From Elusimicrobiota bacterium (GTDB taxonomy: Bacteria; Elusimicrobiota; Elusimicrobia; UBA1565; JACRDR01), in the NCBI GenBank assembly GCA_041694815.1, contig JBGFSC010000005.1, positions 22,973 through 86,972 of the forward strand: a stretch of DNA of 64,000 nucleotides, written 5' to 3'. Shown here piece after piece: positions 15,067 through 19,817 of this stretch. Position numbers and translations under genes: made by a program. The notes below the pieces were generated by a model. That model was not told the origin of the DNA, made no database searches, and was given only the letters and a program-made list of their open reading frames with translations. Positions within the stretch are counted from its first letter, which is position 1; every line of letters starts with the position of its first letter.

Positions 15067-16206
15067 TCAGTCGGCCAAGAGATGCCGACTGATGATGAGC
15101 TCCTGGATCTGGCTGGAGCCCTCCCCGATCTGGTAGAGCTTCGCGTCCCGGAAATAACGCTGGACGGGATTGCGCATCAGGGCGCCGTGGGGCCCGAAAA
15201 GATCGAGAATCAAGGTGGGCGCCTTCATCGCCAGGTCCCCGCTCATGAGCTTGGCCATGGAGGCTTCCTTCGAGTAGCGCTCGCCGTTGTCAACGAGCAA
15301 CGCCGCGCGCAGCGTCAACAGGCGCGCGGCGTCGATCTCGGTGGCGATGTCCGCCAAGAGCTTCTGCGCCCCCGTGAGCCCGGGATTATCGGGGCGGATC
15401 TTGAACTGGTGCTTTCTCGGCTTGACCCAGCGGATTCCCTCCTCGAGAGCCCCGCGCGCGATGCCCACGGCCACGCCCGAGATGCCGACGCGGCCGCCGT
15501 CCAAGACGCGCATGACATCGCCGAAGGCGCGGCCCGGCTCGCCCAGGACATGCTCGGGGCCCAGGCGCACGCCGCTTAAGTGCAGCTGCGCCGTGTCCGA
15601 GCCGCGGATGCCCATTTTTTTCTCTTTCTTTCCGACCTCCAGGCCCGGCGTCCCCTTATCGCAGACGAAGGCCGTCAACGCCTTCTCCCCTGTCCGAGCC
15701 ATGATCACGTAGACCCCGGCCACGGAGCCCTGGGTGGTGAAGGTTTTCGAGCCATTGAGCACCCATCGGCCACCCTCGAAGACGGCCGTGGTCTTGATGG
15801 AGGCGGCGTCCGAGCCCGCCCCAGGCTCGGTCAGGGCCCAGGCGCCGAGCACCTCTCCCCGCGCCAGGCGAGACAGATACTTCTGCTTTTGCGCCTCGTT
15901 GCCCGTCAGGAAGATGTGGCCGGAGCAGAGGGAATTGTGCGACTCGACGGTCAGCGCCAGCGAAGCGTCGGCCCGGCCCAACTCCTCGAGGATGAGGCAG
16001 TAGCTGACCGTATCGAGCTCCTGGCCGCCGTACTTCTTGGGGAAAAAGATGCCGAACAGGCCCAATTTCTTGGCGCCCTCCACGAAATCCCAAGGGAATT
16101 GCTCCTTGATATCGTACTCATGCGCTCGGGGCAGCACCTCCCGCTCGCAGAATTCCCTGACTTTCCTTTGGATTTCGAGGTGATGGGGCTTTAATTTGAA
16201 GTCCAT
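15067..16206 (-). CDS. Acyl-CoA dehydrogenase
   Basis: [35 protein letters not shown]. Confidence 0.93.
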
Positions 16207-16249
16207 CGCCCGTCATCATAACATTTTAGTCCCCAAGCTCGCCTTTCCA

Positions 16250-16489
16250 TAGAAGCCATCCAAACCTGTCAGGCGCCGTCTACAATCACCGCGAAACTGC
16301 ATCGAGAGTCGATCTCTCTAAAACGTAAAGTTTATTTCTTGACGGCGCCTTACGCCTGCAAACTTGGCTTTCGGCCTACGCCCACATCATTCCTCGCTTG
16401 CGTACCTTTCGGGTTGCAGGTGCGCCGCATTTGTTGCCTTGGCTCGAACCCACGTTTTCGTGTTCCAACAGGTTTTTGGACGGCTTCTA
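16250..16489 (-). ncRNA. Candidate structured RNA (or MITE) directly downstream of the HNH gene
   Basis: Closing inverted repeat 16250-16269/16468-16489, internal stems 16271-16280/16341-16350 and 16355-16361/16414-16420, several GAAA/GCAA-loop hairpins on the minus strand. Confidence 0.5.
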
Positions 16490-16504
16490 AGCATAATAAT
16501 GTTA

Positions 16505-17614
16505 TTACTCGCGCTGGAAGTACGGACCGCCGAACGCCCTTCGGCCGGCCAGAAGATTATGCGGCCGACAAAACTGCCTGAGCCCCTCGGGTTGGTCCGA
16601 GGATCCGCCGAGGGCGTAAGGCAGCTTATGATCGAACTCCAACCAGGCCCGACTTTCGCAGCGCACCCCGTCCGATCCAATGAAGACGCATCGGCCGCCA
16701 TCGCGCTCATGCACCGTTTGCTTAACCGACTCCGGGATATACCGCGAACGTTTAAGGCCTTCTCGATTCCCCGTCGTCGGGCGCCGATGCTCGGGCCCGC
16801 TTTTGCGGCGGTCCCGATCGTGCCGATCCAACAACTCGCTAAGCGCCAGACCGATAACGGCGTCTGTTTCCCCGTTAGGGAATCGATGCCGCAATATTTC
16901 CTTGGCCCGAGCGATCATGTCTATGGTCGTTTTACTCGCGGCGAAGCGAAACTCGTATATCTCGGCATTCACCGTGGTCTGTAGAGTCCCGCTTACGTAT
17001 TGACCGAAAAGATCGGGATCAGCAGAAGCCTTCGCATCGACCGAAACCTGGCTTAAAGCCGGCAAGAGGGAATCGGGACTACCCAAAGCCGTCGCATCTT
17101 CTGACGCACGGCTTATAACCGGCAGAACGGCGACCGAAGCAATTTCCGTCAGGGACGGCGCCGCGACTATCCGGATCATATCCCTCGGAGGCTGCTTAGG
17201 ATTTAAGGCGGCGACAATCCGCTCGACCTCCTCCTTGCTTTTGCCGGACGCTCTTTGAAGCAGCCGTTGGTGATTTTCCGAAGTCAATAGCGGGGCAAGC
17301 ATCGTCGCGGCCGATAAGCAAATCTCGCCTTCGCCTATCATCCGCAACAGCGAACGGAATCGGCGTCCCTTGCGGGCCACAGCGATCCGACGATAAGCCC
17401 CGGCCCGCGAGTATTTAAGGATCCGCGTGCAATATTCAAAGGCCGAAGGGTACCCCTTGCTCTCGGGTAGTTGTCTGCGGTCGAACTCCCCGAGCCGAAT
17501 GAGCAGGGCTATAAGCGACCGACGCTCGTTACTTGCGGCCTCGAGCAGTTCCGCGGTCAACCGCTCATCGGTCCAAGCGGCCGTTTCTTTGAACTGCCGT
17601 TCGATTTCGTCCAT
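16505..17614 (-). CDS. HNH endonuclease-domain protein with long helical N-terminal region (DUF222-like)
   Basis: RYIP..VHERDGGRC..RC..LEFDH...GG...CRPHN at the C-terminus; GGAGG RBS before ATG 17614. Confidence 0.85.
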   Translation of the reverse strand: MDEIERQFKETAAWTDERLTAELLEAASNERRSLIALLIRLGEFDRRQLPESKGYPSAFEYCTRILKYSRAGAYRRIAVARKGRRFRSLLRMIGEGEICLSAATMLAPLLTSENHQRLLQRASGKSKEEVERIVAALNPKQPPRDMIRIVAAPSLTEIASVAVLPVISRASEDATALGSPDSLLPALSQVSVDAKASADPDLFGQYVSGTLQTTVNAEIYEFRFAASKTTIDMIARAKEILRHRFPNGETDAVIGLALSELLDRHDRDRRKSGPEHRRPTTGNREGLKRSRYIPESVKQTVHERDGGRCVFIGSDGVRCESRAWLEFDHKLPYALGGSSDQPEGLRQFCRPHNLLAGRRAFGGPYFQRE

Positions 17615-17685
17615 ATGCCTCCAGACCCATATTCCTCCATATGCCTCCACCCATATATACGAATAACAGGTCGATTTAGTTCCAT

Positions 17686-17809
17686 CCCGTGACTTTCAAA
17701 TCAAAAAACGCTGAGAGCAAATAGGATTTTTTCTTTCCAGTCTCACCGGTGAGACTGGAAAGAAAATTCTGCCGGTCTTAAAAGCATTATCTCTCCGAAA
17801 AGTCACGGG
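17686..17809. repeat. Perfect 38-bp palindrome with concentric 11-bp outer inverted repeats
   Basis: TTTTCTTTCCAGTCTCACC|GGTGAGACTGGAAAGAAAA 17729-17766; CCCGTGACTTT 17686-17696 and AAAGTCACGGG 17799-17809 share the same centre (17747/17748). Confidence 0.9.
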
Positions 17810-17900
17810 TTTTTTGTGGATAACAGCAAAGCCGCAGCCAAAGACGGCGCAGGCATCCACCGTGGGTAGCTGAGTACGAGAAATTTTCTATAATCCCGCG

Positions 17901-19817
17901 ATGAAACAGCTCCTCCTCCTGTTCCTCTGCGTCTCCTTCGCCTCCTCGGAGGCACCACCATTGATACCCCGCGAGCTGCTCTTCGGCAATCCGGTCAAGG
18001 CTTCGCCGAAGATATCGCCTGACGGCAAAAAGCTTGCCTATCTAGCGCCCGAGAAAGACATCCTGAATGTCTGGGTACGTAGCGTCGACCGAAGCGACGA
18101 TCAAGTGCTTACCGCCGATAAAAAGCGCGGTATCCGCCAATTCTTTTGGCAGCAAGATAGTCGACACATCCTCTACCTACAGGATCAGGATGGTGACGAG
18201 AACTGGCATCTATACCAAACGAATCTTGACACGAAGAATACGCGCGATCTGACTCCGTTCCAGGGCGTCATGGCGCGGATGGTCTTTGCCGATCCGGATT
18301 TCCCTGATGAGATCCTGGTCGGCCTCAATTTCGAGGACCGCAAGCTTCACGATATCTACCGCATCAATTTAAAAAACGGCGCCGTGGAGCTCGACACCAA
18401 GAATCCCGGCGACGTCGAAGGCTGGAGCGTTGACAACCGCCTGCAGGTGCGAGGGGCCTCGGCCAAAACGTCCGACGGCGGCACCGAACTACGCATCCGC
18501 GACGACGCGCGGTCTCCCTGGCGCATCTTCCAGAGATGGGATCCCCAAGAGAGCTTCGGCGGCATCGTCGCTTTCACGCCGAATGGGCGGGGGGCCTGGG
18601 TATCTTCGAGCGTCGGGGCGAATGCCGTACGCCTGCTCGAATACGACCTAACGACGGATCAGTCGAAGGTCCTGGCGGAAGACGCAACCTATGATGTGGA
18701 CCATGTCATGATCCACCCGACCAAGAGAACTCTGGAAGCCGTAAGTTTTAACCGGGCCAGATGCGAGTGGATGCCGCTCGATCCGTCGTTAAAACCTGAT
18801 TTTGAGGCGCTGGGGAAATTGCGCGATGGAGATTTCCATATCGTCAGCCGCGATCTAGCCGACAAGACATGGATCGTGTCATATGATGTCGATAATCGGC
18901 CAGTTTATTACTATGCCTATACCCGCGGGACACGCAAGGCGGCACTACTATTTAGCAATCAACCGGAACTCGAGAAGTATGCGCTTTCCAAGATGCTGCC
19001 GATATCATTCAAAGCGCGCGATGGCCTGACGATTCACGGTTACTTGACGCTTCCGGTCGGCTCAAAACGACAGGGGCTGCCCATGGTGCTCAACGTGCAT
19101 GGCGGCCCGTGGGACCGAGATATCTGGAAAATGAATCCAGGGGTGCAGTGGCTGGCCAACAGGGGCTATGCCGTTCTGCAGGTTAATTTTCGCGGTTCCA
19201 CCGGCTATGGGAAAAAGTTCCTGAACGCCGGCGATCGCGAATGGGCGGGCAAGATGCATGATGACCTCGTAGACGCCAAGCGTTGGGCAGTCCAGCAGGG
19301 CTACGCCGACCCCAAAAAAGTCTGCATCTACGGCGGCAGTTACGGCGGCTATGCCACGTTGGTCGGGCTGACGTTCACTCCCGAGGAGTTCGCCTGCGGT
19401 GTAGACATCGTCGGCCCCTCCAGCATCGCGACGCTCATCAAGTCCATTCCTCCTTACTGGGCGCCGATAAAGTCAATGTTCGATAAACGGATCGGCAAGC
19501 TGGAGACGGAGGAGGAATTCCTGAATTCGCGTTCGCCGTTGTTCAAGGTTGACCAAATCAAGGCGCCACTGCTCATCGCGCAAGGAGCCAATGACCCTCG
19601 AGTCAAGCAGTCGGAGAGCGATCAGATCGTCGCCGCGATGCGGCAGAAAAATATTCCGGTCGAGTATTTGGTGTTTCCGGACGAGGGCCATGGATTCGCC
19701 CGGCCCGAGAATCGCTTAAAATTTTACGCGGCCGCAGAAGCGTTTTTGACCAGGATTCTTGGCGGGCGGTCCCAACCGCCTTCAGAACGGCATCGCTGGG
19801 ATTCTCTGCGGCGCTAA
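17901..19817 (+). CDS. S9 family (prolyl oligopeptidase/acylaminoacyl) peptidase, exported
   Basis: Signal peptide, beta-propeller region, HGGPW, GGSYGG, NDPRV, DEGHGF. Confidence 0.93.
   Translation: MKQLLLLFLCVSFASSEAPPLIPRELLFGNPVKASPKISPDGKKLAYLAPEKDILNVWVRSVDRSDDQVLTADKKRGIRQFFWQQDSRHILYLQDQDGDENWHLYQTNLDTKNTRDLTPFQGVMARMVFADPDFPDEILVGLNFEDRKLHDIYRINLKNGAVELDTKNPGDVEGWSVDNRLQVRGASAKTSDGGTELRIRDDARSPWRIFQRWDPQESFGGIVAFTPNGRGAWVSSSVGANAVRLLEYDLTTDQSKVLAEDATYDVDHVMIHPTKRTLEAVSFNRARCEWMPLDPSLKPDFEALGKLRDGDFHIVSRDLADKTWIVSYDVDNRPVYYYAYTRGTRKAALLFSNQPELEKYALSKMLPISFKARDGLTIHGYLTLPVGSKRQGLPMVLNVHGGPWDRDIWKMNPGVQWLANRGYAVLQVNFRGSTGYGKKFLNAGDREWAGKMHDDLVDAKRWAVQQGYADPKKVCIYGGSYGGYATLVGLTFTPEEFACGVDIVGPSSIATLIKSIPPYWAPIKSMFDKRIGKLETEEEFLNSRSPLFKVDQIKAPLLIAQGANDPRVKQSESDQIVAAMRQKNIPVEYLVFPDEGHGFARPENRLKFYAAAEAFLTRILGGRSQPPSERHRWDSLRR

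Follow-up and report, generated by a model that had tools for sequence, protein, structure and literature searches.

Does a nuclease gene that stands between two symmetric DNA elements form one functional unit with them? The question is raised by a block at positions 16250–17809 of a 64,000-nt stretch of DNA, the window analysed here (GenBank assembly GCA_041694815.1, contig JBGFSC010000005.1, positions 22,973–86,972), from the 2.77-Mb genome of an Elusimicrobiota bacterium (G000; 54 contigs, designated below by C numbers). The block holds one open reading frame (ORF) on the minus strand at 16505–17614 (stop codon included), which encodes a 369-aa HNH-family protein from its ATG, and an original prediction had described the whole as a self-contained cassette of palindromic site, HNH gene and structured RNA. 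We favour a different account, to which we give a probability of roughly two in three: the ORF would be a three-module HNH nuclease gene, driven by an extracytoplasmic function (ECF) sigma factor within a competence-like regulon, and the repeat downstream of it would be unrelated. The gene product is not RNA-guided, and the block is not a self-contained module. What is new is the link, through an ECF-type promoter, between this HNH family and a competence-like regulon; the family itself was already known, and uncharacterised.

The promoter and the genes that share it

The HNH gene is preceded by a predicted ECF-sigma-type promoter (17657–17683, minus strand), with a −35 element GGAACT at 17678–17683 and a −10 element TCGTAT at 17657–17662. 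In an alignment of upstream regions, GGAACT-N15/16-TCGTATA stands before all five paralogs of the gene in its own genome, and in other genera of the order 12 of the 13 homolog loci carry the pattern GGAACT-N16-CGTAT; among distant metagenome homolog loci, the motif was found at one of the 22 with enough upstream sequence. Genome-wide, the conserved promoter, GGAACTTTT-N-TCGTATATATGGCATG, often leaderless, has 30 motif sites, against 0–12 for reversed, scrambled or wrongly spaced controls, and a weight-matrix scan gives 43 sites. At many of these an ATG follows 7 nt after CGTAT, which suggests that transcripts are leaderless or have very short leaders. A sigma-70 promoter and terminator scan returned no promoter-like site, and its three terminator-like sites were within shuffle expectation. 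The original description of the locus as self-contained fails at this point, the promoter being of an ECF-sigma type common to about 30–40 other host genes and to the sigma gene itself.

The start of the HNH gene lies close to this promoter. The ATG at 17614 is the start in common with homologs, as judged by alignment; an alternative in-frame GTG at 17650, which would yield a 381-aa product, occupies the start-codon position typical of other genes with the ECF-type promoter. A 26-nt tandem duplication on the minus strand (17606–17657), a direct repeat, spans the Shine-Dalgarno-like GGAGG and the start region; it duplicates GGAGGCATATGGA and gives rise, upstream, to a short reading frame that is out of frame with the gene.

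One motif site (C36:17539–17564) precedes a gene for an ECF-type sigma factor (C36:17575–18114; TIGR02937 above cut-off). Such a motif before its own gene usually marks an ECF sigma factor as autoregulated. Other sites precede genes of DNA uptake and processing, namely comEC (C14:12207), comM (C38:47732), comF (C19:14420) and radC (C35:7978), and dprA lies four close-packed ORFs downstream of comM. The products encoded behind the motif include ComEC, YifB/ComM, a ComF/GntX-like protein, RadC, a repetitive extragenic palindrome (REP)-associated tyrosine transposase (RAYT), a PC4-like protein, an MT-A70 methyltransferase and SpoVG, as well as two ORF6N proteins, BrnA/CopG antitoxins, two helix-turn-helix (HTH) proteins and five retropepsin-like (Asp-protease-like) proteins. 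Since the motif is shared with the sigma gene and with DNA-uptake genes, the HNH gene probably belongs to a conserved regulon and would depend on a host sigma factor. A 171-aa ORF on C35 with the promoter, whose N-terminus resembles that of the HNH family, proved to be RadC and was set aside as a family member. Among the accessory genes, the RAYT gene (C15:53833–54741) carries its own ECF-type promoter, and the retropepsin-like aspartyl proteases form a set of five paralogs of 139–157 aa (three in tandem at C41:32503–33979, the others at C28:11222–11674 and C24:41395–41811), each preceded by a separate copy of the promoter; their ATG comes 7 nt after the −10 element, except in one gene, where the distance is 0 nt.

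The same regulon is also seen in relatives, taken from the 31 genomes of the same order, all from other genera, that formed our comparison set (G numbers). Exact pattern matches number 13 in G004, 5 in G005, 22 in G006 and 14 in G028, against 0, 0, 3 and 6 for the control; G015 has none. Thirty of these 54 sites were examined: 29 have a downstream ORF, of which 13 received no label by blastp against the set from the source genome, and the labelled ORFs include genes for an ECF sigma factor twice (in G005 and G006), HNH proteins four times, RAYT twice, ComEC, ComF, SpoVG, HTH proteins twice and ORF6N proteins twice. With a relaxed pattern, counts in G009, G010, G011, G015 and G016 were no higher than those of the reversed control. 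Many of the G009 matches to the relaxed pattern bear, by eye, the GGAACTTTT extension, from which we draw no conclusion.

Alternative-sigma competence regulons exist elsewhere, under ComX/SigX in streptococci and SigH in staphylococci. The arrangement described here resembles them in its small alternative sigma factor and in a motif before comEC, comF, radC and dprA-type genes. It differs in that the sigma factor is a generic ECF sigma (TIGR02937) of another phylum with an autoregulatory motif, and in that the regulon, as read here from sequence alone, is dominated by accessory genes, the five HNH paralogs among them. We found no literature linking an HNH endonuclease, a competence regulon and natural transformation. 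Competence genes are reported to be conserved and expressed in this phylum (PMC8809381), in a paper in which the term ‘sigma’ occurs 0 times; our literature searches turned up no regulator of competence for the phylum.

The HNH protein, its family and its modelled domains

The ORF belongs, with nothing exceptional about it, to the DUF222-like HNH proteins, a very large family that is functionally uncharacterised. Pfam and NCBIfam searches with this copy gave no match even at E≤10, and four PHROG HNH models match residues 274–359 (E 3.4e-4 to 3.9e-3). Among 50 aligned homologs, PF01844 was matched in 24, HNH_5 in 11 and DUF222, weakly, in three (best E 0.0028); in one neighbouring Atlas cluster, DUF222 was found on 23% of members. 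A word-indexed search returned 55 homologs, of which the best has 49% identity and two bear Elusimicrobia names from their sources. When 1.84 billion representatives of 50%-identity clusters were searched with a profile, 10,048 matched at E≤1e-30 and 24,242 did so at E≤1e-10. The nearest Atlas clusters are named ‘HNH endonuclease family protein’ and come from Myxococcota, Acidobacteriota and Bdellovibrionota.

With the DUF222-HNH proteins (PF02720 + PF01844), whose best-known example we take to be the ‘13E12 repeat family’ of mycobacteria, the protein has in common a helical N-terminal domain, a variable linker and a C-terminal HNH domain, the pattern R-x-IP...RD-x-G-x-C...DH...C-x-x-HN, the presence of several diverged copies per genome, and a function as yet unassigned. 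It differs from them in that this copy matches no Pfam model, with DUF222 weak in just three of the 50 homologs, and in its tie to an ECF-type promoter, which all but one of the 22 distant homolog loci lack. Among the papers listed by a search on REP13E12 or HNH proteins, we found no functional study of this HNH family.

All 50 aligned sequences have C309, C319, C349, H352 and N353; H329 is conserved in at least 90% of them, and the 24 closest homologs all retain D328. Both the C-terminal zinc-binding HNH domain and the retained DH and HN dipeptides (D328-H329 and H352-N353) of the original prediction are borne out by these residues, by the HNH profiles and by the fold matches given below. It had also pointed to an altered middle asparagine, and rightly so: the family consensus reads xxNIR where this copy has PEGLR, a position at which the closest subgroup is also variable (G, C). 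The middle Asn of the H-N-H motif has a structural role, so activity is not excluded by the glycine. Neither Pfam nor the fold search found a RuvC or DDE domain, and matches to IscB are confined to the HNH domain (residues 295–362), in agreement with the earlier statement that the protein is not an IscB, a TnpB or the product of an insertion sequence.

An AlphaFold2 model of the 369-aa protein has a predicted local distance difference test score (pLDDT) of 84 and three folded parts; its helices at residues 2–137 match the helical N-terminus described earlier, and its C-terminal region is beta-beta-alpha. Structural comparison with VIA-align suggests the identity of each part. The first, at about residues 30–141 (nt 17192–17527, minus strand, as for the other two), is predicted to be a ParB/KorB-like helical DNA-binding domain, residues 33–141 aligning with the DNA-binding domains of ParB, KorB and Spo0J at Z 6.7–8.1. 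The second, at about residues 218–270 (nt 16805–16963), is predicted to be ribbon-helix-helix (RHH)-like, residues 218–275 aligning with the RHH proteins TraM, NikR and MazE at Z 3.9–4.5. The third, at about residues 285–365 (nt 16520–16762), is the zinc HNH domain, identified by profiles as well; overall its matches reach Z 5.5–7.1 (residues 284–365), and residues 284–368 align with the HNH structures of GVE2 (5h0o, Z 7.1), McrA (6ghc, 6.6) and Gme (4h9d, 6.0), the IscB HNH domain reaching 6.4. We model the protein as these three modules and regard the two N-terminal assignments as leads. The low-confidence linker contains a 60-nt in-frame tandem duplication (17012–17124; 53 nt aligned, 72% identity).

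A homodimer model of residues 210–285 scored 0.42, against 0.00 for the best of three controls; that mark was attained by 20 of 30 proteins solved as one-chain pairs and by one of 23 solved as single chains. The runs had at least 93% of contacts in common with a partner pLDDT of at least 63, and strands 221–225 were paired antiparallel, as in RHH dimers. Because RHH dimers are abundant among solved structures, this outcome indicates a likeness to them and is neither proof of such a dimer nor of binding.

Like the small HNH nucleases and nickases (GVE2 HNH, Gme HNH and EcoKMcrA HNH), the C-terminal domain has the beta-beta-alpha-metal fold, the zinc ligands and an Asp-His general-base pair, but the protein carries two additional predicted DNA-binding modules, and its middle Asn is replaced by Gly. 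The KorB/ParB-family domains that superpose on residues 33–141 (1r71, 8qa8, 6s6h, 1vz0) come from proteins that bind palindromic sites as dimers; unlike ParB, this protein has no N-terminal CTPase domain, the identity is 7–19%, and the match is within the chance range of helical domains. With IscB and its omega RNA (HEARO RNA), the locus has in common an HNH domain that superposes at Z 5.5–6.4 over about 59 residues and a structured non-coding element nearby, but it has no RuvC, PLMP or TID domain and no Rfam match, and the nearby element is a repeat dispersed independently of the gene.

The two symmetric elements

That element, at 16250–16489 downstream of the HNH gene, is a dispersed hairpin repeat unrelated to it. 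Inverted repeats, BLAST and a covariance model (R1) identify it as a nested, hairpin-shaped intergenic repeat resembling miniature inverted-repeat transposable elements (MITEs) or REPs, to which no strand is assigned. It is about 165 nt long in its basic form, with arms that start TAGAAGCCATCC; in the window, outer arms (16250–16267 and 16469–16489) closed by a 15-nt stem surround a core (16350–16468) and an inner hairpin (16268–16353), which is inserted in the left half of this copy only. The source genome has four full copies, of which those at C52:57660–57822 and C40:20625–20788 have no HNH neighbour, and the other two, in the window and at C38:17391–17531, adjoin an HNH gene. R1 matches the window core at 47 bits (E 2.6e-12), has 11 matches in the source genome, and matches in 13 of the 31 relatives, with 52 in G011, 40 in G021, 35 in G027 and 14 in G009; some matches begin at the first base of a contig. 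At further sites only the inner core, about 95 nt, is present, in some cases as an inverted pair.

The original prediction read this element as a structured RNA partner of the nuclease. Both intergenic stretches of the block do fold better than shuffled sequences (z −3.5 to −4.2), but an Rfam scan of 15500–18500 at E≤1 gave chance-level small RNA and microRNA matches only, and no Rfam family, those of IscB-type RNAs included, was matched. The repeat adjoins two of the five paralogs in differing orientations: it lies 3′ of the gene in the window, but 5′ of the paralog on C38 and in the opposite relative orientation. G009 and G011, with their 14 and 52 repeat matches, have no match to the HNH protein. 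Copies independent of the gene, genomes that have the repeat and gave no match to the protein, and the change of orientation identify the element as a dispersed intergenic repeat and not as a partner RNA. It resembles the REP/RAYT systems and MITE-like repeats in its terminal inverted arms, its rod-like fold and its many intergenic copies, some of them at the ends of contigs, and differs in its nested architecture, with a core that can stand alone or in inverted pairs, and in that no transposase is linked to it. A separate 48-nt perfect palindromic repeat, GGTGCCAGGGATTGACTTTCGCCTAGGCGAAAGTCAATCCCTGGCACC, is present in about 30 copies in G000 (for example C9:23812–23859 and C4:15180–15227), with longer variants of 68–84 nt.

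Upstream of the gene, a nested palindrome at 17686–17809, likewise without assigned strand, starts 2 nt upstream of the −35 element. An 11-bp outer stem (17686–17696 and 17799–17809) surrounds a perfect palindrome of 38 bp, 19 + 19, at 17729–17766; the whole folds with z −4.2, and TTTTTTG follows it on the plus strand. The 38-bp palindrome is far beyond chance, unique in the genome by BLAST, and among the few long perfect palindromes there besides the 48-nt REP family. The two independent symmetric elements that the original prediction described are both real and unrelated to each other; the reading of them as the ends of a cassette is not supported, and neither is conserved beside paralogs or homologs.

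The palindrome may be an operator for the DNA-binding domains of the protein itself, or an insulator. Carried further, this would make the gene an autoregulated nuclease, in which a dimer of the ParB/KorB-like and RHH domains binds the palindrome as its operator or cognate site and represses or insulates its own promoter; KorB, which binds palindromic operators, is the model for such a scheme. It is compatible with our preferred account, and it draws on more than the exceptional palindrome, since both modelled DNA-binding modules belong to types whose dimers bind palindromes. At the C38 paralog and at the homolog loci L023 and L029, moreover, nested hairpins that differ in sequence end 2–10 nt upstream of the −35 element, and perfect palindromes lie upstream in L020 and L024 also. 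The paralogs on C20 and C48, however, have no such palindrome, and strong hairpins also precede promoters of the same type at genes outside the HNH family (two ORF6N genes, comM and spoVG), so they may be terminators or insulators used throughout the regulon. A search near ECF-type promoters for half-sites (TTTCCNG...CNGGAAA and TTCCGGT...ACCGGAA) found no recurrent site, and the loci have no half-site in common. On balance, we consider autoregulation through the palindrome unlikely.

Between the palindrome and the S9 peptidase gene stands TGTGGATAA (17815–17823), presumably a perfect DnaA-box consensus. Hairpins of the form TATCCACAAACTTCT...AGAAGTTTGTGGATA, related to TGTGGATAA, recur at other loci, including one upstream of the C16 paralog (C33:4325–4360, C16:5178–5215, C40:20505–20540). 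The S9 peptidase gene itself (17901–19817) has a paralog of about 70% DNA identity at C54:18058–19829.

Mobility, defence and the role of the nuclease

The block lies, as first described, in a dip of GC content (0.554 against a genome mean of 0.629, which places it in the bottom 4.5% of 13,459 segments of 1560 nt), between genes that Pfam names as an acyl-CoA dehydrogenase (acd) and an S9 peptidase. GC content at third codon positions (GC3) is 0.65 in the HNH ORF, against 0.86 in acd and 0.82 in ileS; the adjoining S9 peptidase gene is also low, at 0.69. The source genome has five paralog places at 33–43% identity, of which those on C12, C16 and C20 are full length, the C38 paralog has no HNH domain and the C48 paralog no N-terminal domain. 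Twenty-seven of the 31 relatives have 2–12 matches each to the HNH protein, counts that are inflated by split matches, some ORFs being counted twice. Scanning metagenome loci with this one protein as query brought up no relative; with the alignment as query, 24 loci were found, all of distant homologs (25–41% best-segment identity).

HNH genes of this family occupy variable junctions, at synteny breaks. G004 and G021 retain the order ileS-acd but have a different gene upstream of acd; in G021 the place of the HNH gene, immediately before the acd ortholog, is taken by a group II intron reverse transcriptase/maturase gene (locus L011, 2734–3768). The junction downstream of proS varies likewise, being occupied by the C20 paralog in the source genome and by a RAYT gene with the same promoter type in G001 and G005. 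Because of its low GC3, its multiple copies and its placement at synteny breaks, the HNH gene looks like an accessory, possibly selfish gene; to that extent the earlier label ‘selfish’ holds, but there are no recent copies and no element ends in common. ‘Homing-like’ finds no support: we saw no near-identical copies in the genome and no intron or intein context around the gene, and no empty site could be shown by comparison with genomes of other genera. Aligning the flanks of the five diverged paralogs and of homologs gave nothing in common beyond the promoter, and no terminal repeats. A pair of direct repeats (16152–16165 and 17684–17697, 12/14 nt) that was considered as a target-site duplication was rejected, as one copy lies within the acd coding sequence.

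Could the family serve in defence, its members acting on foreign or modified DNA as McrA and other type IV restriction nucleases do, with the paralogs representing different specificities? Some homologs are labelled McrA by their sources, the HNH domain aligns with those of McrA, ScoMcrA, TagI and Cap5 at Z 5.3–6.6, and the MT-A70 methyltransferase is among the genes behind the promoter motif. PADLOC, however, has no family for this protein and gave one marginal match (E 0.0068) for a paralog, the model contains no modification-reading domain (SRA, SBD, YTH or similar), and the flanking acd and S9 peptidase genes are not the neighbours of a defence island. We consider this role very improbable. 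Least probable is a self-contained selfish or homing cassette, in which the HNH protein would cut a specific site (the palindrome or an empty allele), the symmetric elements would serve as its ends or as cofactors, and the element downstream would supply a guide or partner RNA: low GC3, synteny breaks at which relatives carry other mobile genes, and the two of four full repeat copies beside HNH paralogs speak for it, but the divergence of the paralogs and of the best homolog (49% identity) leaves no sign of recent movement, the palindrome is found at this locus alone, and the behaviour of the repeat largely refutes the RNA part.

The preferred account, the ECF-sigma-driven nuclease, can be set out as a sequence of steps. 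The product would be a cytoplasmic, dimeric, DNA-binding HNH nuclease composed of a ParB/KorB-type helix-turn-helix domain, an RHH-like domain for dimerisation and DNA binding, and a zinc-stabilised HNH domain with its catalytic Asp-His...Asn residues intact; the order maintains the family as several diverged copies per genome. Transcription would proceed from GGAACT-N16-CGTAT with a very short leader or none, a promoter type that the gene shares with that of the sigma factor itself, with comEC, comF, comM (and dprA close downstream) and radC, and with accessory or selfish genes. Given such a promoter, the nuclease would be made only when the sigma factor is active, most likely in a competence-like state, and might then bind and cut, or nick, specific DNA. 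The 38-bp palindrome is a separate, unique element next to the promoter.

Several observations weigh against this account. The promoter and the regulon were deduced from sequence alone, and ‘competence’ rests on four to five marker genes, most members of the regulon being unrelated to DNA uptake; a ComEA-type HHH_3 domain was searched for and not found. The genomes that lack the HNH family show no enrichment of the relaxed promoter pattern over the control. This copy is without both a Pfam or NCBIfam HNH match and the consensus middle Asn, and its activity could be weakened. The Z-scores of the ParB-like and RHH-like matches are moderate, helical domains reaching Z 7–8 by chance, and Foldseek gave no match at E≤1e-3, with the McrA and Gme HNH domains at E 0.07–0.3. 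Finally, two of the four full repeat copies lie no more than 250 nt from HNH paralogs, an excess over chance for which this account offers no reason.

An extension of the preferred account is distinctly unlikely, in our view: the ECF sigma factor may run a natural-competence programme, and the multi-copy nucleases may be competence-induced selfish genes that cut specific sites, such as alleles or incoming strands that lack them. If so, the nucleases would be made exactly as foreign or sister DNA enters the cell, and could thereby either escape ‘curing’ through transformation or use homing-like repair to spread; each copy might recognise, with its DNA-binding domains, the unique palindrome beside it as cognate site.

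In conclusion, the locus is a caution that an element may look structured and lie beside an HNH gene without being a guide RNA. For the uncharacterised HNH family, the promoter conserved across genera provides a regulatory handle, as it predicts when these nucleases would be made, and its sharing with the sigma factor gene and genes of DNA uptake suggests a sigma-controlled, competence-like regulon in this phylum.

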